IMG/VR virus record: IMGVR_UViG_3300015263_000944
Coordinates: 171,395-235,394 of that record
DNA from: a virus
DNA length: 64,000 nucleotides
Strand: one strand, 5' to 3'
Shown: in pieces, positions 21,912 to 54,535 of the stretch
Layout: each line of letters starts with the position of its first letter
Position numbering within the stretch: the stretch's first letter is position 1
Notes under the pieces: generated by a model
Told to the model about the DNA's origin: nothing
Database searches by the model: none
The model's input: the letters and a program-made list of their open reading frames with translations, nothing else
Position numbers and translations under genes: made by a program

Positions 21912-23042
21912 CTATTTGCTCTTAGACGAGTTGATGAAAGTGACGCCCAAGCGTCGAGCCTTCCGTTGCCGAACCGTATCATATGATACCGTCTCATATG
22001 ACTCGTTCGTCGATCCCCATTCCTGACCTGCAAGCGTTGGAGCGAACTCTTTCAACCTGACGATGATCCCGTCAATGATGCTGTTCTTCCAATCGCTCGG
22101 CTCGCCAGCCATGAGCATCGTCGAGAACGACCACAGGTATTGCTTCGGGCTTAGGCAACACAAGTCGTCAATCTCATACCCTTTGTGCTCCATGTATCTC
22201 TGTCGCTCGTCAACGACCAAGAATGGAGTCCTAGCCGCAATGGCTAAGTTGGATATCCCGGAATGCACATCCAGTACCAGCCCGACATACCGCATCGCCG
22301 CCAAAACGTCTGTGACGTTGCGTGGCACCAAGTAGATGCAACGCTGGGCGAATTCTGTGGACATGTCATATGTGAACCAGTTCTGATATACCACCGGAAC
22401 AAAGTCTGCCGCCAACAACTCCTCAATCAACGTCTCCCAAAACAGCTTGGGAACCGTAAGGTTCGTTGCCTTGCCTTTCTGCCACGACCACATCCTTGTG
22501 GTAGGGTAGATGAAGACTTTGCGTCCACTCTTCCTCGACATCTCAGTCAAGAAGTTCTGTGAAAGCTTGTTGGCAGACGGTATCTCGGGCAAGTATCTTC
22601 TAATGTCCGGGAATGTTTCAAAGTATTTCGCAGTAAGCCCAAAGTCGTACAGTTCTTTAAGGTCACGCATCGTGACAATTCTTACAGACTCCATGAGCCT
22701 GTGAGTCAGTTCTGTAGCCAAAGCACTCGTATTGTAAAAGTTATTAGCTTCTGATGCAAGTGTTTTTGCCACAGATTCGTCGTCTAAACACCAATACTCG
22801 TCCACATATGGGAAGAGCCCCTGAAGGCCCGGCCAAGAGCAAAGTATCAGATACTTGCCTGTAAGCTCCTTATATGGCCTCAGAAGTAGGGAGGAGAGGA
22901 CGAAAGCCGATCTGAGATCTCCATAGAAGGGCATTGCGACGACGTTCGACGGGACCGAAGGCATGTTCTTTTCCTTATAGAACTCCCTTCGATAGCCGGT
23001 GCGTTCCGCTACCCTCTGAATGAAATCACTTGTTTGGCTCAT
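21912..23042 (-). CDS. GT-B glycosyltransferase, GT9 (heptosyltransferase)-like paralog 1
   Basis: C-terminal VGLVLDVHSGISNLAIAARTPFLVV resembles the heptosyltransferase GNDSGPMHLAAALGTP motif. Confidence 0.5.
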   Translation of the reverse strand: MSQTSDFIQRVAERTGYRREFYKEKNMPSVPSNVVAMPFYGDLRSAFVLSSLLLRPYKELTGKYLILCSWPGLQGLFPYVDEYWCLDDESVAKTLASEANNFYNTSALATELTHRLMESVRIVTMRDLKELYDFGLTAKYFETFPDIRRYLPEIPSANKLSQNFLTEMSRKSGRKVFIYPTTRMWSWQKGKATNLTVPKLFWETLIEELLAADFVPVVYQNWFTYDMSTEFAQRCIYLVPRNVTDVLAAMRYVGLVLDVHSGISNLAIAARTPFLVVDERQRYMEHKGYEIDDLCCLSPKQYLWSFSTMLMAGEPSDWKNSIIDGIIVRLKEFAPTLAGQEWGSTNESYETVSYDTVRQRKARRLGVTFINSSKSK

Positions 23043-23181
23043 TTACACCTCTTGGTCGGACTTGGGATCGTGCCTCGATTGAGCCCTTGTGGAGCGAACC
23101 AAACCAGACCCTTATCCGCAATCTCCTTCAAGATCTTCTTTCTCTGCTCTTTCGTTCTTCGTTTTTCTAACCAATGATTCT

Positions 23182-24369
23182 TCATGTCAACATCTCATAA
23201 TGTTCAGATTGCAATTGCTTCGTGAACTCCTCATCTTTGACCATACCGACAATCTCGCCATAGTTGCCAGCCTGCATTTCTTCTACAGCCTGCCGAACGA
23301 GATTGAGAGCGGTGTCATTGTCGTTTAAGACGCTACGGTAATGGGCGAGGACGACCTTCTTAGGACCGAAGGTAGCGAGTTCCAACCGTTTGCCCTCTTG
23401 GGCTCCCATGATTCCAGAGTAGGAAACATAAATTTGCTCGGGGCTCTCAAACAACAGGAAGGGAACCCCCATCATGCCTGCTAACCTAGTAGAAGCGGTC
23501 CAGAATTGGACGGTGAATTCAAGGTTGCAGATGATCGCCAAGGTTTTCTCAAGGTCTCTCGACTCTGGCATCTGAGAAAAGTCCAATACATCCTCCACAG
23601 GACATGGCAGGACGTTCTGTTTTTCTCCCAACCAGACAATGTTGTACCCCATTTCTTTAAGAATACCGATGAGTCTTACATAGAACTCTGGCTGAAGATT
23701 TCTGCCGTAGGTTTTGCGGCCTCGGGCAAAGATGCCCACGCTTTTCGGCCTCATCAACCCCTTCGCCCATTCCAATTTTTGGACTGACGGCCTTGGAATC
23801 GCCCTTGCCATCTTACGATTGTGTTCGATATCAGTGAAGATTGACCTGACCAGCATCGTGCTGTGACAATGAGGACAATCTTCATACGCTCTTCGCCATT
23901 CATGCCAGAACTTGCCACAGGTTCGGCAGAAATTGCAGACGGCGTATTTGCCCAGTGCCGCTGAGGGAATTACGTCCCCGTACTTCGTGGCCGCTCGCTC
24001 CAGTCGTTCCAAATTGTTCGAGATGTGGTGGAAAGCCCGAGCATGATCTCGGAGCCACATATACTCCTCCTTCATTTCCCAGAACTCATCAACCAGATGG
24101 CGGTAGATGTACTCTCGGCCATGCCAGCCCATTACGATAACGTAAGCTCCCGGAAACCGTCTCAACAGACGGGGGATACAATACATCGCCCCTAGCGTCT
24201 CACAACCGAATTCTGAGAAGCACGCAATGATCTTGATGCGATCCTTCTTCTTCGGTCTGGGACGATGGTTAAGCTTGTGGACAGTGAAAGAAATCTCATC
24301 GAGCGTCTGCTCTGAGATCTTGGATACAAAGGCATCCTTGTCCTTCGTCTTGAAGTAGGCCAACGCCAT
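23182..24369 (-). CDS. GT9 (heptosyltransferase)-like paralog 2 with inserted CxxC...CxxC zinc ribbon
   Basis: FWTASTRLAGMMGVPFLLFES motif; CNFCRTCG...CPHCHS insertion. Confidence 0.5.
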   Translation of the reverse strand: MALAYFKTKDKDAFVSKISEQTLDEISFTVHKLNHRPRPKKKDRIKIIACFSEFGCETLGAMYCIPRLLRRFPGAYVIVMGWHGREYIYRHLVDEFWEMKEEYMWLRDHARAFHHISNNLERLERAATKYGDVIPSAALGKYAVCNFCRTCGKFWHEWRRAYEDCPHCHSTMLVRSIFTDIEHNRKMARAIPRPSVQKLEWAKGLMRPKSVGIFARGRKTYGRNLQPEFYVRLIGILKEMGYNIVWLGEKQNVLPCPVEDVLDFSQMPESRDLEKTLAIICNLEFTVQFWTASTRLAGMMGVPFLLFESPEQIYVSYSGIMGAQEGKRLELATFGPKKVVLAHYRSVLNDNDTALNLVRQAVEEMQAGNYGEIVGMVKDEEFTKQLQSEHYEMLT

Positions 24370-24617
24370 TTACTTGTTCCCCTTGAGTCGTTTCATCTGC
24401 GAAGGCATACCACACTTCGGACACTTAAATCTTCGCCACTTGCCACAATTTGTACATCCGGGATCAATCTCATTGAGATCGGCGATGTCAGCACTCAGCC
24501 CAGACGAAATCCGAGCCCAACGGCAACGAGGGCAGCGAATGAAGAAGTTCTTGGGTGCCCCGGTGTTGTCCGCTTCCGGCTCATATTCATCTTTGGGGTC
24601 TGCGATGTTTTCTGTCA
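24370..24617 (-). CDS. Small zinc-ribbon protein
   Basis: CPRC...CTNC...CPKC; start at MTENIADP. Confidence 0.45.
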
Positions 24618-24661
24618 TATTGCCTCCGAAATAATATAGTGTGCCGTTAATAAGAAATTCC

Positions 24662-24699
24662 AAAAGAAAAAGCCCGGTAGTGGAATTCCACTACCGGGC
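24662..24699 (-). terminator. Rho-independent terminator (12-bp perfect palindromic stem GCCCGGTAGTGG/CCACTACCGGGC, AATT loop)
   Basis: A-run on plus (T-run on minus) next to stem; lies just downstream of the 691-aa gene ending at 24734. Confidence 0.5.
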
Positions 24700-28959: not shown

Positions 28960-29391
28960 TCAGATTTCAATGGTGGACTTGAAGGTGTTTGTTTCGGGAT
29001 CAAATTTGAGAGTTGTGATCAATTCCCAGTGCGGGTCGGCCTTCGGGACGTACTCTTTTTGTGTGTAGAACATGGCTTCTATGACGAATTCGTACTCTTT
29101 TGCCGCCACTTCGTCATCTGACATGCCCGCCAGAAGATCCTCGCACATCTCCCGACAAATCCGGTAGCAATCCGGCATCCGGGCGCAATGGATCTTGTTC
29201 ATAACCATCGAAGCCTGAAACGCCTTGTCAATCTTCAGCAGATTGATGATGTCTCGCTTCTCAGGGCCATCGCCGAAAATAGCGACGGCAGAGAACTTCG
29301 CCATCACCTGCCCAGCTTTCGGGCCGTGCTTGCGGGTGTCGAAGAAATAGTCGTGAAAATTGCTGTCGTCGATGATGACTTCTTCTGTCAC
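28960..29391 (-). CDS. Hypothetical protein
   Basis: ORF track. Confidence 0.4.
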   Translation of the reverse strand: MTEEVIIDDSNFHDYFFDTRKHGPKAGQVMAKFSAVAIFGDGPEKRDIINLLKIDKAFQASMVMNKIHCARMPDCYRICREMCEDLLAGMSDDEVAAKEYEFVIEAMFYTQKEYVPKADPHWELITTLKFDPETNTFKSTIEI

Positions 29392-32270
29392 AGATCCTCC
29401 AGAATGTCGAAGCCTTCTTCGAAGGTCAGGTCCGTCAGGATCGACTCATCGGGCTTCTCAGGCTTGGGTATCGTCTTCATTACTCTGATGCGATAATCCT
29501 CATCTTTCGGCGGCAGTGTGTTCCGCTTATGCTTCGGAACGCTGTCGAAGGTGAAAGTGTTATATCCACCAGATGGGGGCCTCATGCGAACTTTCAGCAG
29601 AGCACCCTTCTTCAATTCGTCCTGCCATCTGGTGTAGTCGTCTGACCAGATATTCATCTTGGCCTGCCGACTATTCGCATCCTCAAATTCAACAGAGTAA
29701 AAAACGACACCATTCTTGCTGGTTCTTTTCCGAACCGACAAGATCTTCACTTCGATGGGCGCAGGGGCGTCACCATCTTTGTCGCATTCTTCAAGGAAGT
29801 AGTCGATGGTGCGACCAGTGAAATCTGGACTCGATTCCAATTCATGATTCCATTGGAAACCATAGTATTGAGACTCGGCCATCGGATATGTCCGCTGGTC
29901 AAAGACCATCATGTAGTCATTCAGCACGGCTACTTCTTCTTCGTCCAACTTCACCGACGCCGCATTGAACCCATCCATCGTGATCGGATTCTCATCATCG
30001 TCCTTCTCATTCTCCTCGAATCGACGCACGCTGGTTGCTCGTTTGTTCGACAAATCGCTGAGCATCTTCGCCACAGAAACCTGTCGCACTCGATCCTCAC
30101 CCTTGTACTTGTAGGGCACGTCACGGACGATATGTTCAAAGCGTTCTTCCCAGAGCTTCTCAGCCTCTTCAGTGAAGCGAGCCATCTTATCGAAGTCGGG
30201 ATCGCTCTCAGTGATCTCAGTGAGAAGCAACTCACGCAATTCTTCATCCTTCTTGACCATCGAGCCTTCGAAGCGTTGTTGACGCTGCCGACGCTTGGTG
30301 ATTTTGTCTTTGAAGAACTCATGGAACTTCCGCAAATGTTCTCTGTCATAGTGCGGCTCCAGTTCGTCGAACACGCCCAGAGCGATGAGGGCTTTGAGCG
30401 GCGCACCATCCGTTCCAAATTTTGTAAGGAAGTCCGGGAAGTCCTTGTACGGCTGATTCTCCACGATGCGATCAGCCACCGCTTCCCCGATGCCCTTGAT
30501 GTTCTTGAATCCGAAGTAGACCTTCCCATCAGCGATGTTGAAGTTCATCTTCGACTTGTTGATGTTCACCGGACAAACCTCAATGCTATGTTTCTTGGCA
30601 TCCAGTTTGTACTCACGGAACTTCTCGTGATCCTTCTCACACATCAGCGTGGCTGCATAGAACTCCAGAGGATAATGCGCCTTCAAATACAGCAGTCGTG
30701 ACGAGATGTAGGTGTAAGCACAAGCATGGGACCGGTTGAACCCGTATTCGGCGAATGACTCAATTTGATCCCAGAGATCACTGACGAACTCCAGATTCGC
30801 CCCGAGGTTCTTCTGGCCGTTCGTCAAGAACATCTCTTTGTACTTGGCGAACTGAGACACCTTCTTCTTTGAGATGGCTTTACGCACTTTCTCAGTGTGC
30901 ATGTCAGGAATGTTCCCGACGATACGCAAGATGTCCATGACTTGTTCTTGGTACACAAGAACGCCGTAGGTCTTGCCGAGACTTTGTTCCATGATCGGAT
31001 GGATGTTATATGGCTCGCCGCCCTCACGGTCGCCATCACGCCACTTCTTGCGTTTGCAGTAGCGGGCGTCCATCCCCATGTTCAACGGGCCGGGACGATA
31101 GAGAGCCGAATAGGCCACCAGATCTTCGAAGCTGGTCACACCACCACGCTTCACCAGCTTGCGAATACCTTCGCCGTCAAACTGGAAGATACATCGCAGG
31201 TCGGCTTTGTTAGCCATCTCAATCGCAGCAGGATCATTGAGATAAGAGATGTCAGACCAATCGGTGTCCCCCTCTCTGGCACAGATGGATGTAAGACCAT
31301 ATCGCTTCTTCACGAGTTCTGCCGCCAGAGCGATCTGCATGAGGTTGTTGATGACCAGAAGGTCGAACTTGATCAAGCCCACCGGCCCAAGGTCTTGATG
31401 GGCGAGGCCCTCAGACCATGCCGAGCAGATTACACCGTTGGGATGCTGCTTGTTGACCTTCCGCACTTCGAGCGGCACGAAACCATCGATTCGCTTACTG
31501 GAGATAATCAGACCTCCAGCATGGACGCCAGAGTGAGTGTTGCGGCCCTGAAAGAGTTTTGCCGCTTCGGCGATCTCTGGGTTCTCTTCGCAGTAGAGGG
31601 CAAACTTCACATATGCGGTGTCGGCAGGGACGCTGCCTTTGGCTTTCCGAAGTTCAGAGAACTTCTGAACCCAATCCACATCGCCGGTCTCCAACTCCTT
31701 CTTAATCTCATCCTGCTCTTCTTTGGTGGCGATCTGGAAGGTGGCGATTTCAAAGATCTTGTCCCACTCCAGCGGCTTGCCGTCGTCATCCTTATCTTCA
31801 AGCATCGACGTGATGCCTTGAATCTCATGAATGTCAGCCCCATGCACACGGGCCATATCCAAGATGGATGACTTGATGCCCGCCGTTCCGTAGGTGCCGA
31901 TCTCACAAACCTTCTCTTGGCCGTAGGCTTGAGCCGCCCACTGCTCTTTGAGGTAGTCTCGCACCGGCTTCAAGAAGTCGATGTCGATATCGGGGAACTC
32001 GCCCTGAATCCAAGTGTTGGGCCGCTCGATGTCGAACTGTCCTGTGAGATCCAACAGGTAGTCGATGAGGTTGTTGTGTTCGTTCTCTGGGAAGATTAAG
32101 TTTTCCGCCCGAAACTTATCGTGAAGGCCAAGAAGGTACTCATGCTCAGCCTGAGCATCGATTTCCTTAAGCTCTGACTTCAGCCGTTCCTTGTACCTGA
32201 CATCCTGCATCAAGCCTCGCTTCTCCATAGATGCAAGGCACAAGCGGATTAGCTTGTCTCGTTCCTTCAT
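29388..32270 (-). CDS. dnaE: DNA polymerase III alpha (DnaE-type) polymerase core, C-terminal fragment of a split gene
   Basis: EFPDIDIDF catalytic motif about 100 aa from start; GLIKFDLLVINNLMQIALAAELV (GLLKMDFLGL-like); length 960 aa matches the palm/thumb/fingers/OB region. Confidence 0.85.
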   Translation of the reverse strand: MKERDKLIRLCLASMEKRGLMQDVRYKERLKSELKEIDAQAEHEYLLGLHDKFRAENLIFPENEHNNLIDYLLDLTGQFDIERPNTWIQGEFPDIDIDFLKPVRDYLKEQWAAQAYGQEKVCEIGTYGTAGIKSSILDMARVHGADIHEIQGITSMLEDKDDDGKPLEWDKIFEIATFQIATKEEQDEIKKELETGDVDWVQKFSELRKAKGSVPADTAYVKFALYCEENPEIAEAAKLFQGRNTHSGVHAGGLIISSKRIDGFVPLEVRKVNKQHPNGVICSAWSEGLAHQDLGPVGLIKFDLLVINNLMQIALAAELVKKRYGLTSICAREGDTDWSDISYLNDPAAIEMANKADLRCIFQFDGEGIRKLVKRGGVTSFEDLVAYSALYRPGPLNMGMDARYCKRKKWRDGDREGGEPYNIHPIMEQSLGKTYGVLVYQEQVMDILRIVGNIPDMHTEKVRKAISKKKVSQFAKYKEMFLTNGQKNLGANLEFVSDLWDQIESFAEYGFNRSHACAYTYISSRLLYLKAHYPLEFYAATLMCEKDHEKFREYKLDAKKHSIEVCPVNINKSKMNFNIADGKVYFGFKNIKGIGEAVADRIVENQPYKDFPDFLTKFGTDGAPLKALIALGVFDELEPHYDREHLRKFHEFFKDKITKRRQRQQRFEGSMVKKDEELRELLLTEITESDPDFDKMARFTEEAEKLWEERFEHIVRDVPYKYKGEDRVRQVSVAKMLSDLSNKRATSVRRFEENEKDDDENPITMDGFNAASVKLDEEEVAVLNDYMMVFDQRTYPMAESQYYGFQWNHELESSPDFTGRTIDYFLEECDKDGDAPAPIEVKILSVRKRTSKNGVVFYSVEFEDANSRQAKMNIWSDDYTRWQDELKKGALLKVRMRPPSGGYNTFTFDSVPKHKRNTLPPKDEDYRIRVMKTIPKPEKPDESILTDLTFEEGFDILEDL

Positions 32271-35139: not shown

Positions 35140-35152
35140 CTTCTAACTTGAG

Positions 35153-41023: not shown

Positions 41024-42433
41024 TTAAGCTGCATCCGCATGTGGGATCGGCTGCAAGCTGTGTCGAATCTTCATCTGCTTACCGCCACGAGCCGGGCTCA
41101 AGAAACGACTGAATCTCAAGTCGTTGATGATTGGCTCCACATCATGCAATCGCAGGCAGTAAGCCACCAGTGAACCGCAAGCCGAACCACGGCCCGGACC
41201 CACGGCTTCTGAGCCATCGCCGAACCCAACAATGCTGGGGCCGACATGGCGAGCTTCATCTGTCATCTGTTTCTGAATCAGGAAGTAGCTGGAGAAGCCC
41301 TTCTCACAGATCAGGTCGTACTCTTCCCGGATGCGGGATGAGTATTCCTTGGTGGCTGGACAACCTCGGGCCTTGAAGCCTCGCAGGGTCTCTTGCCATA
41401 GAAGGTCATCGGCATCTGGAATCTTCGGGAGCTTGATGTCCCTGTCGATCTCAACGCCCTTTGCTTTCTCACAGATGGCGATGGTGTTTGCTTTGGCTTG
41501 TTTGAAGATCTCGTAGTCGATGATGTCTTTGTACTTCAACTCCCACATGGCGTTGAGTTCGTCTTCTGACTTCAGCCACAGATTGGTGTCCTGAAGCTCA
41601 AAGAGATCATCGGCTTGACCGGAATCGATCATGGCCTGCACTTCTTGAATCGTGCGTTTGTTTTGCTGCATCAGCATGAGTCGCTGATTGTGACTGTGCT
41701 CTTTCTTGATCATCGGGAGACCGTACTTCTCGTGTGCCCGAATGAGGAAGGCGTTGTACGGCCCCTGCATCTTCCAGTCGAGCATCATCATTTCAAGGTA
41801 GAAGTTGTCTCGACCGAGCATGTCGATGTAGTATTCCAACATTTGGAATCCCGCCTCATCGCCGCCCTCAAAGAAGGCTGTGGCTATTTCGCTGATGCCA
41901 CAACCACTGGTGAAAATGATGCCTTCCTTGTGTTCTCGGAGAGCATCATGGTTGATTCGAGGGCGATAGTAGTATCCGTGAATCCACGCCCACGACGACA
42001 ACCGAACGAGGTTTTGGTAGCCGATGTTGTTATAGGCAATAGCGAGCAGATGACATGATTTGCGGAAGATCTTCTGCTCTGGTGTTTGGGCTTTCGTCTC
42101 GGCATTGGGATCGCCAAGACTCTTGTAGAACTCAGCCGTATCAGAACGAGTGTTGGATTTGGGCTGCATCCGATTGACATACAACTCGCAACCGAACAGC
42201 GGGTACAAGTTGTGCTTCTCTGCTTGTTCGATCTGCTGGGGAACTGCGCCCATAACCCCGTGATCGGTAATGCAGAGATACTTCTGGTTGATCTCCTTCA
42301 TCCGCTGGGCATACTCCCACACCATGGCAAAGCCATCGAGAAGAGAGAAATCCGAGTGTCGGTGAAGATGCTCAAAGCCCATAATCGGATGGTGCATTAC
42401 TCGTCGCCTTCCTTGGTTCCGTTTTGTTGCCAC
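41024..42433 (-). CDS. dnaE: DNA polymerase III alpha (DnaE-type) N-terminal fragment: PHP domain through start of palm
   Basis: HLHRHSDFSLLDG PHP motif; ends GPGRGSACGSLVAYCLRLHDVEPIINDLRFSRFLSPAR (E. coli [36 protein letters not shown]), then about 20 extra aa and a stop. Confidence 0.85.
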   Translation of the reverse strand: MATKRNQGRRRVMHHPIMGFEHLHRHSDFSLLDGFAMVWEYAQRMKEINQKYLCITDHGVMGAVPQQIEQAEKHNLYPLFGCELYVNRMQPKSNTRSDTAEFYKSLGDPNAETKAQTPEQKIFRKSCHLLAIAYNNIGYQNLVRLSSWAWIHGYYYRPRINHDALREHKEGIIFTSGCGISEIATAFFEGGDEAGFQMLEYYIDMLGRDNFYLEMMMLDWKMQGPYNAFLIRAHEKYGLPMIKKEHSHNQRLMLMQQNKRTIQEVQAMIDSGQADDLFELQDTNLWLKSEDELNAMWELKYKDIIDYEIFKQAKANTIAICEKAKGVEIDRDIKLPKIPDADDLLWQETLRGFKARGCPATKEYSSRIREEYDLICEKGFSSYFLIQKQMTDEARHVGPSIVGFGDGSEAVGPGRGSACGSLVAYCLRLHDVEPIINDLRFSRFLSPARGGKQMKIRHSLQPIPHADAA

Positions 42434-44724: not shown

Positions 44725-45045
44725 TTAGTCTCCCATGATCAGCGATCCGAGATCATCGTCGATGCCAGCAGGCTTGACGTATCCGGTCGCTTCGAGTTTC
44801 TTTTGTGTTCGATAGGCATTCCGAAGACTCATACAACAATCTTCGGCACGATCCCATCCTGCCGTCTTCCAGACATCTTTGAGTGGGCCGACGTTCTGCC
44901 AGCCCTTCTCTGTGAGGTATTCAGCCATCACTTTCTCTTCGGCCTGACGAGCCTCTCGCTTCTTTTCCTTTTGCTTCTCTCGACGGCGGGTCTTAGAAGC
45001 AGGTTCGTTGGCTCGCTTGGCACGTTGCTTTTTGGTTAGTGTCAT
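44725..45045 (-). CDS. Basic hypothetical protein
   Basis: ORF track; K/R-rich N-terminus. Confidence 0.4.
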   Translation of the reverse strand: MTLTKKQRAKRANEPASKTRRREKQKEKKREARQAEEKVMAEYLTEKGWQNVGPLKDVWKTAGWDRAEDCCMSLRNAYRTQKKLEATGYVKPAGIDDDLGSLIMGD

Positions 45046-46643
45046 TTCAGGAAATCCTTCTCATATTGTTCTCTGGACATGATGTGGACATCACTATCCA
45101 TGTTCGGACCATCGCAGACCAAGACGTATTCTTCCCCGTCAAGGTTCTGAGATCCCAGAACAACCACATTCTGCCAGATCATGTGAATTGAAGTGAGAAC
45201 CTCTGTGGCGTACTTGTGGTACAGCGGTCGTCCATCAGCGTAGTGCTGCATGAAGAACCAGCCTTTGCCCAAGTGGTTCGGGTCGGTCAACCTGATGTCA
45301 GGCAAACCGCCATTACAGTAGCGTTGGAGCATCTGTTTCTTGACTTCCTTGAAATCACGAGACGTGATCTTCCACTCGCCCGTTGACATGCGGCGGTAGG
45401 TGTAATACTGCATCTTCTCGGCGAACTCTGGAGTGAAGAATTCGTTGATCAAGGTGTAGTCGTTGTAATACTTCCTGACTTCGAAGACCTTCTCCATGCC
45501 GAGCCCAAGTTTCTTATCCCACTTGGCCTTCTCCCGCATGTTGGTGCATTCTTCCCATTCCTTGCCGAACTTGCCCTTGTTCCATCGATCTTCGATGTCC
45601 AAGAGAAGCTCGAAGCCCAGCTTGTATGGGTTCTGACTCCACTGACCTCCCAAGACTCGCATCTTGTGTTCGGCATAGTGCCAGATACCAGCCGCTTCAT
45701 CGTCCTGTCCGAGTGAGGCAAGGCCCTCCCGACAGAGTAGGTGGTAATCGACGAAACTGGCCCAACCTTCATTGATCATCTTCGTTTGTCGCTGAGGTTG
45801 GAAGTACATGGACTCATCATAGAGCATCGAGATGATGTCTTGCTGCCACGGCTTGAGTGGAGCATTATTCTTCAAGAATCCCATGATGTCTCGATCAGCA
45901 CGACCGAACAGGCCAAGGAATTCCGAAGCTTCTTTCTTCTCAATTCTCTCGTGTTCCTTCTCGATGTACGAGTCGGGGTTGACCCATTCGTCCATGTAGT
46001 CATGAGTGGATTTCAAACGTCTGGGAAAATGGTATTTTCTTTCATCCCTGACATTCTTGTTTTCAATCTTCTTTCGCTTCCATGCCTTCTGAGGATCAAT
46101 GAGCGTTTCGATTCGCATCACATGGTCGATGAACTCTGTGACACGCTCGCCGCCCCAACGCTTCATGTACTGACGAATTCGAGTGCTGTGATTCGCCAGC
46201 TTGTTCATCATGTTTTCGTCAGTCGGCCCAAAGAAAATGTTGTTCTTGAAGAAGTCGTTGTGGCCGATGGCGTGACAGATAACGTCCACGTTGTCTACCA
46301 ACGTGTTCGAGTCCATGCAGTAGATGTAACATGGATTGGTGTTGATCACCATTTCCGAGATACGGTACTGGTTGTATTCGTAACCACGACTCATTTCCTC
46401 ATATTCCATTCCCCACTTCCAGTGTGGGTATCGGACAGGGAAACCGCCGTAGCTGGCAAGCTCAGCCATTTCGTCGTAGCGGACAAATTCAACGATGATG
46501 GGATAGTAGTCCAACCCCATATCCCTGCAAGCCTTCTCCATCTGAGGAAGCAGTTCCTCCACTTCCTTGTGGATCTTCAGACCGGGAATGTTGTTGTCAC
46601 CAACCAGAATTGGTGTCCCGCTCATCATGTTAGATTTTGACAT
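45042..46643 (-). CDS. SpoVR-family protein
   Basis: Full-length similarity pattern to SpoVR/YcgB (about 530 aa; HWKWGMEYEEMSRGYEYNQYRI, CHAIGHNDFFKNN). Confidence 0.85.
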   Translation of the reverse strand: MSKSNMMSGTPILVGDNNIPGLKIHKEVEELLPQMEKACRDMGLDYYPIIVEFVRYDEMAELASYGGFPVRYPHWKWGMEYEEMSRGYEYNQYRISEMVINTNPCYIYCMDSNTLVDNVDVICHAIGHNDFFKNNIFFGPTDENMMNKLANHSTRIRQYMKRWGGERVTEFIDHVMRIETLIDPQKAWKRKKIENKNVRDERKYHFPRRLKSTHDYMDEWVNPDSYIEKEHERIEKKEASEFLGLFGRADRDIMGFLKNNAPLKPWQQDIISMLYDESMYFQPQRQTKMINEGWASFVDYHLLCREGLASLGQDDEAAGIWHYAEHKMRVLGGQWSQNPYKLGFELLLDIEDRWNKGKFGKEWEECTNMREKAKWDKKLGLGMEKVFEVRKYYNDYTLINEFFTPEFAEKMQYYTYRRMSTGEWKITSRDFKEVKKQMLQRYCNGGLPDIRLTDPNHLGKGWFFMQHYADGRPLYHKYATEVLTSIHMIWQNVVVLGSQNLDGEEYVLVCDGPNMDSDVHIMSREQYEKDFLK

Positions 46644-47638
46644 TACTCGGTTCTCCTCCAGATATCATCCACATCATACGAGATATCTGTAATTAACTCA
46701 AGCTCTTCCCGCACTCTTCTTATAGGTTCCGACCAATCTCCTTCGGTCGATTGCCAGAAGAGTTTAACCGTGTCGTACCACATGGTTGTTTTAGAACGAT
46801 CCCACAAAGGATTATCGTCGGATTTCATCAATCCAAAAGTTGGTTTGTTCATGGTGCCTGCCAAATGAAGGACAGATGAGTCTGTCGCAATGACCGCATC
46901 CATGGCGTCGATCAAAATTGCCACGTCGTTGAAATCGTATGTTGATGGCATCAACATTGATTCGGTGTTGGGCAAGGTGTAAATGTTCCATCCCGATTCT
47001 TTAAGGACGGCCATTTGTTCCTCGGGGATTTGTTTGACGTGCAAACCACAAGCGGGCCGATTGGGCTGTATTGCCGCCTCGCCGTGAGGCAGAATCTCTG
47101 GCTGCCAAGGAACTTTGGTCTTCAGAATGACCGATCTGTCGGCGGGATAGTAGTGATCCAACTTGAGGCCACTCAACAGAGCCGGGATGCACATGATGTT
47201 GGTGTGGTAATCGCAAAGGACATGCTGATTGGTGAACTCATCCACGAACCAAACATCTTCCATCAATTTCTTTAAGGCTTCGTAGGCCGAGTAGCAATTC
47301 AGCACGATGCGACATTCCCATTCCCGCTTCAAAGCGGCGAGATATCTAAAGAAATTGATGGTGTTGCCGATGTTGAAGTCCGTGAACACTTCAATGGACG
47401 ATCCACGCAGGGACTCCCCCCGCCAGTTGCGGCCAAAGTGTTTGGAAAGGTCTGGACGTGATGCGCCCAGTGTGTCTGAAACAATCAGGCTGTAGAGTTC
47501 GCCGATGAGTTCGTGACTGGGATCTAATTTGCGGATAACTTCCAACAACTTGACGGCTTTATCGGGCAAGCCGATCCAGTAGTAGTTGTTGACAGTCGCC
47601 AGACCTTGATCAAGATACTGTTTGGAGTCCCGTGCCAT
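46643..47638 (-). CDS. GT9 (heptosyltransferase)-like paralog 3
   Basis: VIATDSSVLHLAGTMNKPTFGLMKSDDNP resembles the heptosyltransferase C-terminal motif. Confidence 0.5.
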   Translation of the reverse strand: MARDSKQYLDQGLATVNNYYWIGLPDKAVKLLEVIRKLDPSHELIGELYSLIVSDTLGASRPDLSKHFGRNWRGESLRGSSIEVFTDFNIGNTINFFRYLAALKREWECRIVLNCYSAYEALKKLMEDVWFVDEFTNQHVLCDYHTNIMCIPALLSGLKLDHYYPADRSVILKTKVPWQPEILPHGEAAIQPNRPACGLHVKQIPEEQMAVLKESGWNIYTLPNTESMLMPSTYDFNDVAILIDAMDAVIATDSSVLHLAGTMNKPTFGLMKSDDNPLWDRSKTTMWYDTVKLFWQSTEGDWSEPIRRVREELELITDISYDVDDIWRRTE

Positions 47639-48473
47639 GAATGCTGTCCCTCAACTCTCGAATTTCCTGATGCGTCGGATCGTCGCTTTCATCGAGATTG
47701 ACAAGGAACTCGTCGGACACTTCTGGCCTTCCGCCCTTGGGATAGCAGAAAATGTTCAACGAATTGCCTGCATTCAAGACATCCACCTTGTGATACTTGA
47801 AGTTGTCTGGATTGTAGACAGGAGTTTCATGCAACTCCCAGTCATAACCCACATGCTCCACGAATCTCAAAATGTCTTCCCTGTTGTCGGCAAAGTTCAC
47901 ATACAACAGAGGGGTGGACCTATCGATGGTGCGACGGCAACCATTCAGTACAGAAAGCTCCATGCCCTGCACTGACACCTTAATCAACTTGGGCTTCGCC
48001 AAGTTGACATCATCGATGGCAATTGATGCTACCGGATTATCACATTTACGTCCATCTCGGTCCTTGGCATTCAACAATGTCGCCAAGCTGATTTGTGATA
48101 GATCGACTTCACCATTGATGTCAACCGATGGGAAGTAACAGACGCCTTTGCTGGAATCTGTCACCGAACGGTTGAATGCTTGGATGTTGGTGATCTGGTT
48201 GAGAGCGATGTTGCCGCACAACATGAAGTACAGGAACGTGTGAGCCTCAATTGCCAAGACGTAACCCTCTGAGGTAACGTGCTTCGCCAAAGGAATCGTG
48301 ATCGATCCAATGTTGGCCCCAACATCAACGACCACATCACCCTTGTCAGTCAGCTTCTTCAAGAATTCTACCTTGAAAGAATTGACTTCTCCGTAGGTGT
48401 CCAGAGAACGACCTACCAATTGATCGTTCTCTAAGAACATCATGTCTCCATACTTCGTGCTGCTGACTTTCAT
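47610..48473 (-). CDS. FkbM-family methyltransferase
   Basis: VVVDVGANIGSITIPLAK motif typical of FkbM MTases. Confidence 0.65.
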   Translation of the reverse strand: MKVSSTKYGDMMFLENDQLVGRSLDTYGEVNSFKVEFLKKLTDKGDVVVDVGANIGSITIPLAKHVTSEGYVLAIEAHTFLYFMLCGNIALNQITNIQAFNRSVTDSSKGVCYFPSVDINGEVDLSQISLATLLNAKDRDGRKCDNPVASIAIDDVNLAKPKLIKVSVQGMELSVLNGCRRTIDRSTPLLYVNFADNREDILRFVEHVGYDWELHETPVYNPDNFKYHKVDVLNAGNSLNIFCYPKGGRPEVSDEFLVNLDESDDPTHQEIRELRDSIHGTGLQTVS

Positions 48474-49714
48474 GCTGCTGCCTCTCTCTTATCGTTTTCT
48501 TTGCCCAAGATCTTACGGATGGCTTCGATGATCTGCTCGTTGCGATCTTCTTCGCTGAGATTGGGGGCATAACCCCAGTTCCCGAATCCGAAGTTCCCAT
48601 CATCGTTATCCGATTCATCGGGGCCGACATTGGCCGTCTCGATATAAGAAGAGTCCAACTTTCCGCCTTTTAGGGCGTTGTCGAGGTGTTGTTTCACACT
48701 ATCTTCGTATCTCCAAGAACAAACCTGCGTCATGCCCAACAGATTAACCTTGCTGGGACCGAGTTCTTCTTTGATGATCTTGATCATCCGGCTGTTGTCG
48801 TCGCCCCAGTTGTCACCATCTGAGAAGTAGAAGATGTAGACGTTGTACTTCTCTGGCGGATATCTGTTTTCCAACTGATCCGCAATGGCCCGGAACGCCG
48901 ACGAACACATTGTTCCACCACCATAACGATAGGTGTAGAACGCCTCTTCGTTGACTTCCTGTGCTCTGGTGTCGTGGACAAAGTAGCAACGATCCACCTT
49001 GTCATAGAATTTTCTGATCCAGCAGTCGATCCACCAACTCATGTCGCTGACAATATCGCAGCGATAGTCGTCCATCGACGCCGAGCAGTCTCGGGCGAAG
49101 AAGATGACAGCATTCGAGGAAGGAATCTTGATCTGTTTGTACTGTCGATATCTGAAGTCGTTGTTGATGGGCGTCAGCAATCGAACTGGCACCTTGCAGC
49201 CCGGCACCCACTGGAGGTTCTCCAGTTCGCCGGTCATCGACAATCGCTTCAGTGCTTCCTTCATCGTTCGACGAGGATGGCGCAACGCTTGCAAACCGAC
49301 CCGAGAGATATCGTTGTACTTGATCTTGATCTCTTCGTAGGTTTCATTGGGCTTGGGCCTCATGCGAGGCAACTTCAGTTCGTCCTGCATGAACCGCAGA
49401 ACGTCATCCATATCGATAGTGATCTGGATGCCTTCACCGGGATCTTCCCCAGCTTTGTTGCCACCCTTGCCCGGTTGTGGGTCTCGCCCAACAACGTCGC
49501 CTTCTTTTCCCGGCCCACGACCGACACCTTCCCCGTTGCTTCCAAACACGAAGCGAGGAATCTCGATCTGCGGGATAGAGATCGTCATCTTGCCGCCCTT
49601 GGGCCGCTGACGAACGATGGACCCCGACTTGATCAGTCTTTTCAATTCACGTCGGGTGCGTCCAGAGATCACATCTCTGAACTTCTTATGATCTTCTTGG
49701 ATTCTCTTTGGCAT
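48470..49714 (-). CDS. YeaH/YhbH-like DUF444 (vWA-fold) protein
   Basis: Gly-rich N-region GPGKEGDVVGRDPQPGKGGNK, then vWA-like FFARDCSASMDD; length and order match DUF444. Confidence 0.8.
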   Translation of the reverse strand: MPKRIQEDHKKFRDVISGRTRRELKRLIKSGSIVRQRPKGGKMTISIPQIEIPRFVFGSNGEGVGRGPGKEGDVVGRDPQPGKGGNKAGEDPGEGIQITIDMDDVLRFMQDELKLPRMRPKPNETYEEIKIKYNDISRVGLQALRHPRRTMKEALKRLSMTGELENLQWVPGCKVPVRLLTPINNDFRYRQYKQIKIPSSNAVIFFARDCSASMDDYRCDIVSDMSWWIDCWIRKFYDKVDRCYFVHDTRAQEVNEEAFYTYRYGGGTMCSSAFRAIADQLENRYPPEKYNVYIFYFSDGDNWGDDNSRMIKIIKEELGPSKVNLLGMTQVCSWRYEDSVKQHLDNALKGGKLDSSYIETANVGPDESDNDDGNFGFGNWGYAPNLSEEDRNEQIIEAIRKILGKENDKREAAA

Positions 49715-49794
49715 GATGCTCCCCTTGTGTAAGAAAAGAGGGCGATAGCGGTAGAGTAACGATCAACCACCACTACCGCCCCCAACGTCCGTCA

Positions 49795-51879
49795 TTACTC
49801 GGAGACATCGCCTCTGGCAAAGATGCTGCTCACATAATCGAGCACATCAGTAGCCGACTGCTGGTTGTATCCGCACTGCTTAATCAATCGAGTCTTGATG
49901 GCATCGATCTTTTCTTGCAGATCGGGGTCCAACTCGGCAGCTTCTTTTGTCAAAGCCGACAACTTGATCGTGTCTTTGACATCTTCAAAGACCTTGGCTT
50001 CAAGAGCCCGCTTCAACTCAGGATTGCTGTCCCAGCGGAACTTTTTGTCCCGAGAAGCCAGCGTGCCGATAAAGGCGGCGAGCGAACGTCGGAAGTCGTC
50101 ACAACCCTGTTCGGGGATGCCGTTCTTCTCTTCAATGCTACGCATCAGTCGCTCGTCGGGGTCCATGAGGTTGCCCGTAATCGGGTTCTCCATCTTCTCG
50201 TCATTGACGTAGGCGATCACGTTGTCAACGTATTTGTTGCACAGTCGTTCAATGGCCTTCTCATCGGCGACGAGAGCACGTTGGACCTCGTTTTTCAGGA
50301 TTTCGTCGAGTTCCTTGATTGCCAATTCGACACAGAACTCATACTTCTTCCTGTCCTCCACCTTGGTAATCAGCGACGAGTGACCCAAACCTTCCTTGAT
50401 TTCGCTGAGCACATGGAACACGTTCACATAATGCTTGCGGCGAGCCAATTGGTTCGAGATCTTGTCCTGCACATATCGTGCAGACACGCCACCGATCATA
50501 CCTTCATCTGGGAACTTGTCCCGAAGCTCCTTCACGGTATCTTCGGTCCAGCCCGGAAGCTGACGGCCATCATAAAGTTTGGCCTTGTCCCGCAGATCGA
50601 GTTTCCCCTCACCGTCATCGTGTAAACGAGTCAGAATGGCGAAGAAAGCAGCGATCTCCAAAGTATGTGGCATGATGTGTTGCTTGACTTTTCCGGGACC
50701 ATACAGGTGTTCCAGAATCTTCTGCTCATCCGACCAGCGAAGCAGGTACGGCACATCCACCTTGACGGTTCGGTCACGAAGAGCTTCCATGAACTGGTTG
50801 TTCTTGAGCTTTTCGTACTCGGGGTTGTTCGTGTGAGCAATGATCAACTCATCGATCACAATCTGAGGGAACTTCTTCGGCTTGATCTGGTGCTCTTGAG
50901 ACGCTCCCAGAAGATCGTAGAGAAATGCGTTGTCGAGCTTCAACATTTCGATGAATTCACAGATGCCTCGGTTGGCAACTTGGAATTCGCCGTCGAAGTC
51001 GAAAGCACGAGGATCTGAGTCGGCCCCGAAGTGGCCGATCTTGCGATAGTTCATATCGCCGGTGAGTTCCGTGCTGTCCTGATTCTTCTCGTCCTTGGGC
51101 TGGAATGTTCCGATGCCCACACGATCCGTTTCAGAGTGACATCTGCGGACCACCACGATGTGGTTGTCGATGACCTTCTGCCAATCCCCATCATAGGTCT
51201 TGAGCAGGTGGTTCAAGAACAGCTTGCAGCGGGGATTGATCTCTCCCTCACAGATCAGCTTGTAGAGACTGTCCTTGTCGTCATCACTCGCCATGTCTGT
51301 GAACGTGGCGTTGAGATCCTTCAAGAACTCCTGCCGCATGGGAATCGGCATCAGCTTCAAAGGATTTTCGTTGAGAGCCGCATCGCAGGTGTCATTCAGG
51401 TAGATCGCATTCTGCCCTTCGAAGGGAAGATTGACCCACTTGTAAGTGTACCATGCACCAGCATTGGTGCGGCTGTAGCGTTCCAGACCTCTCTTCAAGA
51501 GGCGGCAGATGGTGGATTTCGACGAACCCACCGGACCATGCAGCAAGAGCACACGCTTCTCGGTTCCATAAGAACCGGCTGCACCGTGAATGAAATCGAC
51601 AAGACCCTGAAGAGTCTTCTCTTCCAATCCGAAGATCGGAAGGGTGTCGTCGTCGAAGAAGTGGTATCTGGTGTGTGTCTTTCGATAACGCTCGAAAGTG
51701 CTGGTGCCCTTTTCCATGATCATGTCATAGACATATTGGAAAGCGTTACGGGCCAGCGTTGGCCGCTTCATGACCAAGTTCAGGTAGTCGCCATACGACA
51801 TTTCTTCGTTCAAGGCGAGAAACTGTTCTCGATCATAAAGTTCAGCGTACTTGCTTAAGAAAGTAGTTGTGTTCTCCAT
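49795..51879 (-). CDS. prkA: PrkA-family serine protein kinase (AAA-like N-domain)
   Basis: 694 aa; N-terminal MENTTTFLSKY...; P-loop LLLHGPVGSSKST; overall PrkA/YeaG architecture. Confidence 0.9.
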   Translation of the reverse strand: MENTTTFLSKYAELYDREQFLALNEEMSYGDYLNLVMKRPTLARNAFQYVYDMIMEKGTSTFERYRKTHTRYHFFDDDTLPIFGLEEKTLQGLVDFIHGAAGSYGTEKRVLLLHGPVGSSKSTICRLLKRGLERYSRTNAGAWYTYKWVNLPFEGQNAIYLNDTCDAALNENPLKLMPIPMRQEFLKDLNATFTDMASDDDKDSLYKLICEGEINPRCKLFLNHLLKTYDGDWQKVIDNHIVVVRRCHSETDRVGIGTFQPKDEKNQDSTELTGDMNYRKIGHFGADSDPRAFDFDGEFQVANRGICEFIEMLKLDNAFLYDLLGASQEHQIKPKKFPQIVIDELIIAHTNNPEYEKLKNNQFMEALRDRTVKVDVPYLLRWSDEQKILEHLYGPGKVKQHIMPHTLEIAAFFAILTRLHDDGEGKLDLRDKAKLYDGRQLPGWTEDTVKELRDKFPDEGMIGGVSARYVQDKISNQLARRKHYVNVFHVLSEIKEGLGHSSLITKVEDRKKYEFCVELAIKELDEILKNEVQRALVADEKAIERLCNKYVDNVIAYVNDEKMENPITGNLMDPDERLMRSIEEKNGIPEQGCDDFRRSLAAFIGTLASRDKKFRWDSNPELKRALEAKVFEDVKDTIKLSALTKEAAELDPDLQEKIDAIKTRLIKQCGYNQQSATDVLDYVSSIFARGDVSE

Positions 51880-52612: not shown

Positions 52613-52629
52613 GCAATTATCTATGAGAC

Positions 52630-52952: not shown

Positions 52953-53129
52953 ATGCGAGCACTATCTGCTTTGCTCCTCGGCCTCGCCCTGTGTTTCTCA
53001 GTGGGCTGCTCTTCTTCTGACAAGTGTTGCGACGATGGTTGCCACTGCCAAAAGGACGGTAAGTGTTGCTGTGAGAACGGCGAATGCAAAGAGGGCTGCG
53101 ATTGCGTCAACTGCGATTGCAAGAAATAA
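52953..53129 (+). CDS. Secreted/lipoprotein-like Cys-rich metallothionein-like peptide (58 aa)
   Basis: GGAGG RBS; MRALSALLLGLALCFSVGC signal ending in Cys; then CCDDGCHCQKDGKCCCENGECKEGCDCVNCDCKK (18 Cys in 35 aa). Confidence 0.5.
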   Translation: MRALSALLLGLALCFSVGCSSSDKCCDDGCHCQKDGKCCCENGECKEGCDCVNCDCKK

Positions 53130-53134
53130 CCACG

Positions 53135-53166
53135 AAGAAAAGCCGCCAGAAATGGCGGCTTTTTTC
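53135..53166. terminator. Bidirectional rho-independent terminator (GCCGCCA gaaa TGGCGGC + TTTTTT)
   Basis: Between convergent genes 52953-53129(+) and 53168-54535(-); A-run upstream and T-run downstream. Confidence 0.6.
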
Positions 53167-53167
53167 A

Positions 53168-54535
53168 TTACTTAAGGAACCCAGTTGTGCTCAACCCATC
53201 CATCAAAGGAGCACACAAAACCTCCGGGACAATATCCGCCCCGACGATATCCGACTTCTTGTAGTCCGCTCCCTTTACCAGCACGTCTGGCCGGATCTCC
53301 TTAATAATCTCCAAAGGTGTGTCCTCGTCGAAAGATACGACGAAATCGACCATCTCCAGAGCCGCCATGACCTTCATTCGTTGGTCCAATGGCTTCAGAG
53401 GCCGCTCAGGGCCTTTCAGACGCTTCACAGAATCGTCCGAGTTCAATGCCACGACCAGCTTGTCTCCTTGGCTCTTAGCGAACCTGAGCGTCTCCAGATG
53501 GCCTTCGTGGAGGATGTCGAAGCAACCGTTGGTAAAGACCAGCTTGAAATCTCGGCTGGCGAGATCAAGCCCGTTTTCGACCAAGCCCCGGTGGGCCATC
53601 TCGGCTGGGACAATGGGCCGGTTCATCTTGTTCTGGACGTAGACGGCTCCAGCCGTCCATGCGATCTCTGCCGCCTCTGGGACCGAGAATCCGTGCCCAA
53701 TCGCCATCGCAAAAGTTGCACAGAAACAATCGCCAGCCCCAATCACACTCTCTACCTCCACGGTTCGAGTGGGGTTAAAGCAGAAGAACTCGTCGTGCCA
53801 GACTCCCGCCACCTTCTCGCCGCCGAACGTAATCACAACGCCTTCACACTCGGTTTCGTTCTGCAAATGTTTGGCCTGTTCTCGCCATGTGCTGCGACCA
53901 GTCAGATCTGCGGCCTCTTTGGCGTTTGGCTTCAAAATCGTGCAACCTCGCCATTTGCTCAATGGCCCATTCTTTGGATCAACGATGGTTGTGACATCAT
54001 GATAGAAATCGAGGATGCTGTGTTCCTCGCTGGCGAAGAAACCTTTGTTATAGTCTGACAGAATGGCGACATCTGGCTTGGACGACTTAGCGATCACGCT
54101 CTCAAGATGTTCTGTGACAAAATCAAGCAGATATTCGTCGAGGCCACAGTTGGGTGATTCGATATCGTGTCGCACGACTTGGACGCCGCCATCGAGGAAA
54201 CGTCGTTTGATTGGGAGGCTTGCTTCGATACCACTGAAAGGGGCACAGGTCCATGACAAGCCATGTTCATCAAAAACCCTTGCTGCTTTGTCATCATAGA
54301 AACAAAACAGCAAGGGATCGACATTGAAGTGTTTGAATTGGTAAGCGACATTCGCTGCGCCGCCCGGCTTCCGCACACGCTGGGAATGCGGGGACCACAT
54401 GATCGGCATGGGAAACTCGGGACTGATGCGATTGACCTTCACTTCATAGTATTCGTCGATCATTGCATCGCCGAGCACATGAATCTTAAGATTCTGGCTC
54501 CTGTTCTTTTGTAGAAAGGTCTGGATGTGACTCAT
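53168..54535 (-). CDS. hldE: Bifunctional D-beta-D-heptose 7-phosphate kinase / heptose 1-phosphate adenylyltransferase (HldE/RfaE)
   Basis: N-terminal ribokinase-like domain with GAGDCFCATFAMAI; C-terminal cytidylyltransferase domain LVFTNGCFDILHEGHLETLRFAK (HxGH). Confidence 0.85.
   Translation of the reverse strand: MSHIQTFLQKNRSQNLKIHVLGDAMIDEYYEVKVNRISPEFPMPIMWSPHSQRVRKPGGAANVAYQFKHFNVDPLLFCFYDDKAARVFDEHGLSWTCAPFSGIEASLPIKRRFLDGGVQVVRHDIESPNCGLDEYLLDFVTEHLESVIAKSSKPDVAILSDYNKGFFASEEHSILDFYHDVTTIVDPKNGPLSKWRGCTILKPNAKEAADLTGRSTWREQAKHLQNETECEGVVITFGGEKVAGVWHDEFFCFNPTRTVEVESVIGAGDCFCATFAMAIGHGFSVPEAAEIAWTAGAVYVQNKMNRPIVPAEMAHRGLVENGLDLASRDFKLVFTNGCFDILHEGHLETLRFAKSQGDKLVVALNSDDSVKRLKGPERPLKPLDQRMKVMAALEMVDFVVSFDEDTPLEIIKEIRPDVLVKGADYKKSDIVGADIVPEVLCAPLMDGLSTTGFLK

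Follow-up and report, generated by a model that had tools for sequence, protein, structure and literature searches.

The heptosyltransferases WaaC (HepI) and WaaF (HepII), members of CAZy glycosyltransferase family 9 (GT9), are encoded in core operons for lipopolysaccharide (LPS) together with hldD. The GT9-like enzyme TibC uses ADP-D,D-heptose to modify a protein, and its iron finger of four cysteines (Cys4; residues 339, 342, 358 and 370, in the C-terminal lobe) takes part in substrate recognition and dimerization (PMC4358343). Phages are already known to carry both GT9 genes and HldE, the latter in cyanomyoviruses, in PHROG 7878 and in at least 371 IMG/VR stretches, and HldE and GT9 genes in phages are usually filed as auxiliary genes that adjust the host's LPS. 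We analyze here a stretch of viral DNA of 64,000 nucleotides (IMG/VR record IMGVR_UViG_3300015263_000944, positions 171,395 to 235,394), which we call the window. It encodes an HldE-like protein and three proteins related to GT9, which we name A, B and C.

An earlier note on this DNA had proposed that the phage makes nucleoside diphosphate (NDP)-heptose and that three divergent paralogs transfer the heptose to LPS, a capsule or the phage's own proteins. We favor the interpretation that the window carries two different heptose-related systems: a module of the clade's core genome, composed of HldE and the adjacent pair B-A, and an accessory cassette, composed of C and an FkbM-family methyltransferase. 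The sole heptosyltransferase that Pfam recognizes here is the sporadic, apparently degraded C. HldE's conserved partners across the clade, whose genomes reach ~0.7 Mb, are two 'hypothetical proteins' that are GT9-like by structure prediction only. Our proposal, to which we assign a probability of about 0.45, is that B and A are the two subunits of a transferase that depends on ADP-heptose and modifies a conserved acceptor, with A as its catalytic subunit and the zinc ribbon of B recognizing the acceptor.

Results

The HldE-like bifunctional heptose-7-phosphate kinase/heptose-1-phosphate adenylyltransferase is encoded on the minus strand at positions 53168-54535 (455 amino acids, ATG start). 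It fuses a PfkB kinase domain (PF00294, residues 182-303) to a CTP_transf_like domain (PF01467, residues 334-427). The best NCBIfam match is the equivalog model PRK11316, aligned over its full length (285.5 bits, E-value 6.5e-85, curated cut-off 521); the models rfaE_dom_I and rfaE_dom_II match residues 12-313 (151 bits, cut-off 345) and 328-453 (166.9 bits, cut-off 181.5). All three scores lie below the curated cut-offs, yet HldE is by far the top match. Because of these scores and an identity of ~34% to Salmonella RfaE, we file the protein as an HldE homolog with a putative function. The closest solved structures, those of the heptose-7-phosphate kinase HldA (4e84) and of an HldC-type nucleotidyltransferase (5x9q), point to heptose as its substrate, and in alignments to both the motifs VIGAGDCF (GAGD, with the catalytic Asp), PGGAANVA and FDILHEGH (HxGH) are present. 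The motifs GDxMxDxY...RISPE, GGAANVA, GAGD and HxGH are invariant in six homologs from the clade that are 47-69% identical. The protein belongs to PHROG 7878. The bifunctional HldE of the earlier note is thus upheld by both domains, the full-length match and the retained catalytic and nucleotide-binding motifs: the window protein is an intact HldE homolog, and it is presumably active.

Genes B (23182-24369, 395 amino acids) and A (21912-23042, 376 amino acids) are also encoded on the minus strand. Both start with ATG, both are GT-B/GT9-like members of the clade's core genome and neither has a Pfam family. These two genes, C and hldE were all found where they had first been placed, each on the minus strand with an ATG start. 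Homolog alignments span 93-100% of the lengths of these ORFs, and we therefore consider them real genes. The AlphaFold models of A (predicted local distance difference test score, pLDDT, 93.1; predicted template modeling score, pTM, 0.91) and B (pLDDT 89.8, pTM 0.87) are predicted GT-B folds with GT9 enzymes as top structural matches. From a viral structure library, their matches are phage proteins annotated as RfaF, GT9 or Aah/TibC. Neither protein has a match in PHROGs, and searches of the Protein Data Bank (PDB) by sequence or profile found no GT9 match to either. A match of the A profile to glycogen phosphorylase (E-value 1e-3) was treated as a generic GT-B echo and set aside. A and B each have hundreds of homologs, 52-85% identical, on contigs of up to 693 kb; both proteins are mildly basic (B has an isoelectric point, pI, of 8.8), and no transmembrane segments are predicted in A, B or C.

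Profile comparisons relate A to B and, more tentatively, B to GT9. A and B are paralogs (hhalign 96.5%, E-value 8e-10, 256 columns), whereas the match between B and C is weak (71%) and that between A and C is not significant. The proposed trio of paralogs consequently reduces to a pair, with C as a separate and much more distant GT9 lineage. A B-profile hidden Markov model (HMM) search of 1.84 billion representative proteins gave 116 matches, nearly all of them B-family members or fragments, and it also reached the A family (E-value 1.6e-4). The B profile additionally matches three distant multidomain proteins that contain PF01075 (P0369, P0370 and P0375; E-values of 8e-6 to 3.5e-4, library-wide). 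The profile-level link between A and GT9 runs only through B; compared to WaaC, A has a probability of 20%. The hhalign comparisons of A and B to a WaaC/F/U profile used three sequences, too few for significance, and served for register only. The fold claim is sound: within the GT9-like GT-B fold, A and B are a branch that has diverged strongly and is confined to the clade. By sequence, they are not strict members of GT9. The description of all three proteins as GT9-like consequently applies, by profile, to C, which exceeds the gathering score of PF01075, while A and B fail all GT9 sequence models and are GT9-like by fold.

We mapped the putative active sites of A and B using sequence register and the secondary structure of the AlphaFold 2 models. 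A has G41-D42 directly after strand beta-1, with the Asp present in 62/65 sequences (compare MGD in WaaC and VGD in WaaF), and its C-terminal lobe contains several invariant acidic and basic residues. B has three invariant arginines (R216, R218 and R223) where GT9 enzymes have a phosphate-binding Lys, with R223 aligned to K192 of WaaC, and an invariant L-G-E motif. In GT-B enzymes, the N-terminal lobe binds the acceptor. It is in this lobe of B that a Cys4 zinc-ribbon insert is located (23866-23928, minus strand; C148-x2-C151-x13-C165-x2-C168). As the earlier note had read it, the insert is genuine: all four cysteines are invariant in 64/64 sequences, with a weak match to the Pfam family Zn_ribbon_8, and the segment of A aligned to it is without cysteines. 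We considered the ribbon as an equivalent of the TibC iron finger and ruled this out, because the two are in different lobes.

The window is part of the genome of a huge phage whose clade also contains the 595,163 bp 'uncultured phage' LR756511.1, to which it is related by protein-level similarity and extensive synteny. A megablast search with a 22 kb part of the window as query gave no match among 50,697 deposited phages and hence no close DNA relative; LR756511.1 is detectable by protein-level search only. Across the clade, B and A are neighbors on one strand in 52/52 loci where both are visible; B comes first and A second. The adjacency extends to LR756511.1, whose copies are 39% (A) and 49% (B) identical to those of the window. 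The pair is restricted to the clade and is conserved within it to the same degree as the core replication and PrkA genes.

HldE is a core gene as well, syntenic between DHFR-ThyA and PrkA. It is found within 10 kb upstream of PrkA in 62/66 clade loci that have enough upstream sequence, and one of the remaining four has HldE just outside the fetched range. B and HldE share a contig in 18 cases, 20-35 kb apart where measurable. All eight examinable long B contigs contain HldE, as do the window and LR756511.1, each time 20-35 kb from B. A pattern-limited scan had suggested that HldE is absent from 11/14 long B contigs; we rejected these absences as false negatives, as the PrkA neighborhoods showed HldE in every examinable contig.

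In contrast to HldE, the remaining steps of the heptose pathway are missing. Six-frame tblastn of the window with Escherichia coli queries found neither GmhA nor GmhB (E-values above 0.8), in agreement with the earlier note, and phmmer likewise rejects hidden copies; a Pfam scan of 55 window open reading frames (ORFs) found no SIS or HAD domain. No gmhA, gmhB or hldD was found in the window or in any clade locus. In the complete relative LR756511.1 there is no GmhA homolog, and the candidate for GmhB is a weak GmhB-like HAD only. A positive control shows that such genes can be found: in unrelated IMG/VR contigs with HldE, this gene adjoins a GmhB (56-79 bits) and a genuine HldD, which scores 97-258 bits against the E. 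coli protein. Since gmhA, gmhB and hldD were not found, the phage could not make ADP-heptose alone and would rely on the host's GmhA and a GmhB-type phosphatase; the product would be ADP-D,D-heptose, because no HldD is present. The proposal that the phage makes NDP-heptose is accordingly retained in part: an intact HldE makes a capacity for heptosylation plausible, but not for producing ADP-heptose unaided.

Several further observations concern this pathway. Many smaller viral contigs (loci L091-L139) combine HldE with a genuine HldD and GmhB in near-complete ADP-L,D-heptose operons, and none of the loci fetched showed a GmhA. In LR756511.1, the region 95000-110000 (locus L008) contains the GmhB-like HAD ORF (6894-7910, minus strand; 31% identity to E. 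coli GmhB) and, ~7 kb from it (~14784-14996, plus strand), a second cytidylyltransferase-like segment that resembles the C-terminal half of HldE; the two may be a further sugar-activation module, located outside the window. The window also encodes a GlpX-type class II fructose-1,6-bisphosphatase (63058-63945, minus strand). Class II fructose-1,6-bisphosphatases can double as sedoheptulose-1,7-bisphosphatases. Speculatively, the GlpX-type enzyme could raise sedoheptulose-7-phosphate, the entry substrate of the heptose pathway.

A short-chain dehydrogenase/reductase (SDR) at 10931-11830, given as 10931-11788 in the earlier note, had been suggested as a replacement for HldD. This suggestion does not hold. 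Against the HldD model TIGR02197 the protein scores 104.7 bits (cut-off 274.6) and is outscored by GalE, dTDP-glucose dehydratase and LegB models. It is 27.6% identical to E. coli HldD, with a phmmer score of 53.8 bits, compared to 97-258 bits for the genuine viral HldD proteins. In the PDB it matches UDP-glucose 4-epimerase and UDP-xylose synthase best, and the top 60 matches include no heptose epimerase. We therefore rule it out as an HldD substitute and annotate it as UDP-sugar 4-epimerase or UDP-xylose-synthase-like. The SDR gene belongs to a separate glycan cluster (3019-11830), which further comprises three GT2 genes (3019-3753, 6970-7788 and 8373-9209), a sulfotransferase-like gene (7768-8385) and a GNAT gene (9643-10284), and which has a DnaJ gene in its middle.

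C (46643-47638, minus strand, 331 amino acids) is an accessory GT9-family homolog with a TPR-like N-terminus. It matches PF01075 with 27.6 bits (gathering score 22), over 45 residues only (231-275). Its family is small, with 23 proteins, and 12/23, the window copy included, contain PF01075. Compared to WaaC/F/U, the C-family profile reaches 95.4% in hhalign over the C-lobe signature, and the family displays the GT9 hallmarks of a G-D after beta-1, a conserved Lys and the motif D-T-x-x-L-H-L-A-G. In the window copy the last of these reads ATDSSVLHLAG, where D253, the equivalent of WaaC D261, and H258 are invariant in 21/21 sequences. C is thereby confirmed as GT9-like, the only one of the three that Pfam recognizes.

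The window copy of C is an outlier of its family. GMGD is found in 20/21 C-family sequences and the window copy alone has GN, a D92N substitution of the presumed catalytic base (D92 was mapped to D13 of WaaC by motif position, not by structural superposition). The copy keeps K202, but the 12-residue loop W-x-S-N-x-x-N-x-L-S that precedes this Lys in all 20 other members is deleted. Altogether 18/78 near-invariant positions are changed, D276N and R278L among them, compared to 0-11% in other members. Without the presumed catalytic Asp and with the diphosphate-binding loop partly deleted, C in the window is probably impaired or altered in its function, and a loss of activity would be consistent with these changes.

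C is a sporadic, fast-evolving insert. It is present in 8/80 PrkA loci of the clade: in seven, the window's nearest relatives, it is inserted between DUF444 and SpoVR, and in one it adjoins HldE. It is absent from LR756511.1 and from locus L004. The window's C is 37-41% identical to the sister copies, compared to 71-80% for the flanking genes. Among the sister genomes, C is 39-66% identical (39-52% when one close pair is left out), while PrkA, DUF444 and SpoVR are 70-81% identical with that pair left out. The start of C overlaps a gene for an FkbM-family methyltransferase (47610-48473, minus strand; Pfam Methyltransf_21; TIGR01444, 73 bits). This gene is itself variably present: it accompanies C in loci L001/L144 and L147, and the other sister loci lack it. 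Within the window's sub-clade, the FkbM and C insert interrupts the PrkA-DUF444-SpoVR operon. In other viral lineages, a C-family gene is located directly beside HldE (L064, 1718-3001; L213, 5197-6480; also L087, L088 and L094), the best of them, on a contig of 298 kb, scoring 152 bits with the C-family HMM. GT9-type genes and HldE are thus independently coupled in viral genomes generally.

The gene content surrounding these systems is that of a huge phage: a split DNA polymerase III alpha, an AAA ATPase, IF3, bS21, peptide deformylase, DnaJ, ClpP, PhoH, ThyA, DHFR, dCMP deaminase, the PrkA-DUF444-SpoVR operon and a transfer-messenger RNA (tmRNA). HldE is 1.9 kb from ThyA, with conserved synteny. 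We examined ThyA as a pyrimidine hydroxymethylase that feeds DNA glycosylation and rejected it as the preferred reading, because ThyA passes its equivalog cut-off, keeps the Asn that specifies dUMP and adjoins DHFR. The operon of PrkA, DUF444 (YeaH-like) and SpoVR (YcgB-like) genes (45042-51879, minus strand) is highly conserved clade-wide, with PrkA 59-80% identical. A small ORF of CxxC type (24370-24663, minus strand, 97 amino acids) has a stop codon that directly abuts the start of B; it also adjoins B in LR756511.1 (44% identity), matches the zinc-binding family ECs_2282 weakly and is a possible operon partner of B. Immediately downstream of A is the bS21 gene (~21527-21850, minus strand; PF01165 is assigned on the identical JGI contig). 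With this gene and those for IF3 (13192-13728) and peptide deformylase (20672-21187), the B-A pair has translation-related surroundings.

Other features of the window are more distant from the heptose genes. DNA polymerase III alpha is split into an ORF for the PHP/N-terminal part and one for the C-terminal part (41024-42433 and 29388-32270, both minus strand), separated by ~8.7 kb that contain an AAA ATPase, two methyltransferases, a C92 amidase and the tmRNA gene. In LR756511.1 (locus L007, 13869-17390) the parts are contiguous, with the AAA gene upstream, which indicates a rearrangement or insertion. The tmRNA gene (35150-35532, minus strand) has the ARAGORN-predicted tag peptide VETSTPLRMAA and matches the full-length Rfam model RF00023 with 88.5 bits. 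A thiamine-pyrophosphate (TPP) enzyme, acetolactate-synthase-like with three TPP domains (13742-15379, minus strand), is followed by an ORF of 362 amino acids without a family (15389-16477, minus strand); this metabolic pair, unusual in a phage, is kept in LR756511.1 at 53% and 58% identity. The ORF at 60724-61419 (plus strand) combines a zinc finger with a TnsA-like or endonuclease I-like nuclease domain and may be a homing or mobile endonuclease.

B-family genes also appear in metagenome-assembled genomes (MAGs) assigned to Bacteriovoracaceae, Myxococcales, Neisseriaceae, Chloracidobacterium, Nitrosotalea, Acidimicrobiaceae and an archaeon (loci L220-L226, contigs up to 546 kb). These bins come from unrelated phyla, and host inference from them gave no consistent host. 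The contigs are most likely those of huge phages, mis-binned into cellular MAGs.

Discussion

The proposed mechanism combines the host's heptose supply with the phage's core genes. HldE would phosphorylate host-made D-glycero-D-manno-heptose 7-phosphate, a GmhB-type dephosphorylation that the window does not encode would precede adenylylation, and HldE would then adenylylate heptose 1-phosphate, yielding ADP-D,D-heptose. The B-A pair would function as a two-subunit glycosyltransferase with this donor. A, which keeps the canonical Gly-Asp catalytic-base motif, would be the catalytic subunit; B, with its remodeled active-site region and its Cys4 ribbon in the acceptor lobe, may supply acceptor recognition. 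C and the FkbM methyltransferase, in turn, would be a fast-evolving accessory cassette with the pattern of a host-surface-glycan modifier. Because HldE is near-universal and C is rare, C cannot be what the conserved role of HldE depends on. The partners of HldE are consequently either the host's heptosyltransferases or B-A, the sole core GT9-like proteins. The use of ADP-heptose by B-A is suggested by circumstantial co-conservation with HldE, and we similarly infer the joint action of A and B and the nature of their acceptor.

Several points weigh against a heptosyltransferase role for B-A. Neither A nor B matches PF01075 or the NCBIfam heptosyltransferase models at an E-value of 0.1 or below. 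At the position of WaaC D261, A has His260 (an invariant D258 is located two residues upstream) and B has an invariant W290; an invariant S-E-F-G-C-E (G55-C56-E57) replaces the Gly-Asp motif in B. Not all GT9 enzymes use heptose, as the CAZy family includes an LPS GlcNAc transferase, and the other nucleotide-sugar genes in the window are the three GT2 genes and the UDP-sugar epimerase-like SDR. HldE and B-A are in separate operons, 20-35 kb apart. The 8/8 count of HldE on long B contigs leaves out six further long B contigs, and the co-conservation may merely reflect a shared block of core synteny where everything is conserved.

HldE could instead be an ordinary auxiliary metabolic gene (AMG) that boosts the host's ADP-heptose pool and thereby lets the host's own heptosyltransferases go on making or altering LPS, capsule or S-layer glycan in the infected cell, with B-A as an unrelated pair that uses another nucleotide sugar and another target. 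HldE-like genes are common in viruses (the at least 371 IMG/VR stretches), the cyanomyoviruses P-SSM2, S-SSM7 and P-SSM5 carry them without a B homolog, the window's HldE and B-A occupy different gene neighborhoods, the phage needs the host's GmhA and GmhB in any case, and heptosyltransferase I has already been listed as an AMG in a huge-phage paper (PMC10747093). We nevertheless regard this explanation as unlikely, as HldE is near-universal in a clade whose sole core GT9-like proteins are B-A. Moreover, unrelated viruses have HldE in an operon with HldD and GmhB, whereas here HldE is retained alone. Enterobacterial LPS core synthesis uses the ADP-L,D-heptose form. Retention of HldE alone therefore fits a user of ADP-D,D-heptose, of the TibC type, better than LPS core synthesis.

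The substitutions in the active sites admit another explanation, in which A, B or both are non-catalytic scaffolds or pseudo-enzymes with a GT9 fold, similar to PnsB1, and have a structural or regulatory role such as ribbon-mediated binding of nucleic acid or protein. The nearly invariant G-D motif of A, the invariant charged residues of its C-lobe, and the invariant Arg and Lys of B in the loop that binds diphosphate in GT9 enzymes make this decidedly improbable. In TibC, W305 acts in sugar binding (PMC4358343), and the conserved Trp of B is consequently not evidence of inactivity. A heterodimer with one catalytic and one non-catalytic subunit would also be compatible with the two-subunit transferase that we propose. 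That B-A uses a donor made by HldE to heptosylate the phage's DNA, perhaps at a hydroxymethylated pyrimidine, is very improbable given a canonical ThyA and no visible hydroxymethyl-base pathway, even though a phage cluster of kinase/HAD, cytidylyltransferase and GT-B genes has been reported to place mono- and di-heptose on 5-hydroxymethylcytosine (bioRxiv 10.1101/2023.12.21.572611), HldE is close to ThyA in conserved synteny, B is basic with a zinc ribbon in its acceptor lobe, and the B-A pair adjoins replication genes.

Returning to B-A as a two-subunit heptosyltransferase, the pair is conserved like core genes and restricted to the clade. A conserved acceptor, encoded by the phage or belonging to the cell, is therefore more probable than the variable LPS of a host. 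In a more specific version of the proposal, B-A and the stand-alone HldE would together be a heptosylation system in the core genome of a widespread clade of huge phages; the ribbon of B would recognize the acceptor, and the modified molecule would be a conserved phage macromolecule instead of host LPS. We consider this version doubtful, though worth stating; its possible targets are phage DNA, a virion protein, and a protein from the phage's own machinery for translation or replication.

If B-A uses ADP-heptose, heptosylation is a core and not an accessory trait of these phages, two of the clade's most conserved unannotated genes gain a function, and biochemistry gains a defined target of one donor and two proteins; GT9-fold enzymes would then reach beyond LPS and autotransporters. 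If the target is also a conserved phage molecule, B-A would be the first conserved viral GT9-type heptosyltransferase for protein or DNA. If B-A does not use ADP-heptose, the locus is still instructive: in huge phages, it is unsafe to annotate from profiles that 'GT9 plus HldE means LPS modification'.

We found no description in the literature of a GT9-like pair that is obligate, clade-core and invisible to Pfam, with a Cys4 ribbon in the acceptor lobe and co-conservation with a stand-alone HldE. One comparison is PnsB1 (NDF1), a structural subunit with a GT9 fold in the membrane complex of chloroplast NDH, which belongs to a eukaryotic or cyanobacterial lineage and has no phage relation and no paired arrangement. 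The DNA glycan hypermodification clusters of phages share a common idea with the module proposed here, namely sugar activation by the phage and a GT-B enzyme that places heptose on a phage macromolecule. Those clusters, however, encode a C5-methyltransferase, a TET-like dioxygenase and transferases similar to T4 beta-GT, and their product is 5-heptosyl-methylcytosine (bioRxiv 10.1101/2023.12.21.572611), whereas the window has GT9-like transferases, a canonical ThyA and no hydroxymethyl-base pathway that we could see. The viral HldE-like genes (P-SSM2, P-SSM5 and S-SSM7; PHROG 7878; many IMG/VR contigs) are likewise phage-borne heptose-7-phosphate kinases and heptose-1-phosphate adenylyltransferases, but the cyanophage versions are 27-29% identical to the window's HldE and split into two genes, while the window's is fused and stands alone.

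Among transferases, the bacterial autotransporter heptosyltransferases TibC and AAH (the BAHT family) differ from B in having an N-terminal beta-barrel, which is not predicted in B, and TibC carries its finger in the C-lobe while the C148-C168 ribbon of B is in the N-lobe; TibC also scores below WaaF for both A and B. Compared to WaaC and WaaF, A and B have no detectable PF01075 sequence similarity; in B, the acceptor lobe carries the Cys4 ribbon, G-C-E replaces G-D, and a Trp occupies the D261 position, where A has a His. Finally, whereas WaaC and WaaF are encoded in an LPS core operon with hldD, A and B are an obligate adjacent pair in the core genome of a phage.

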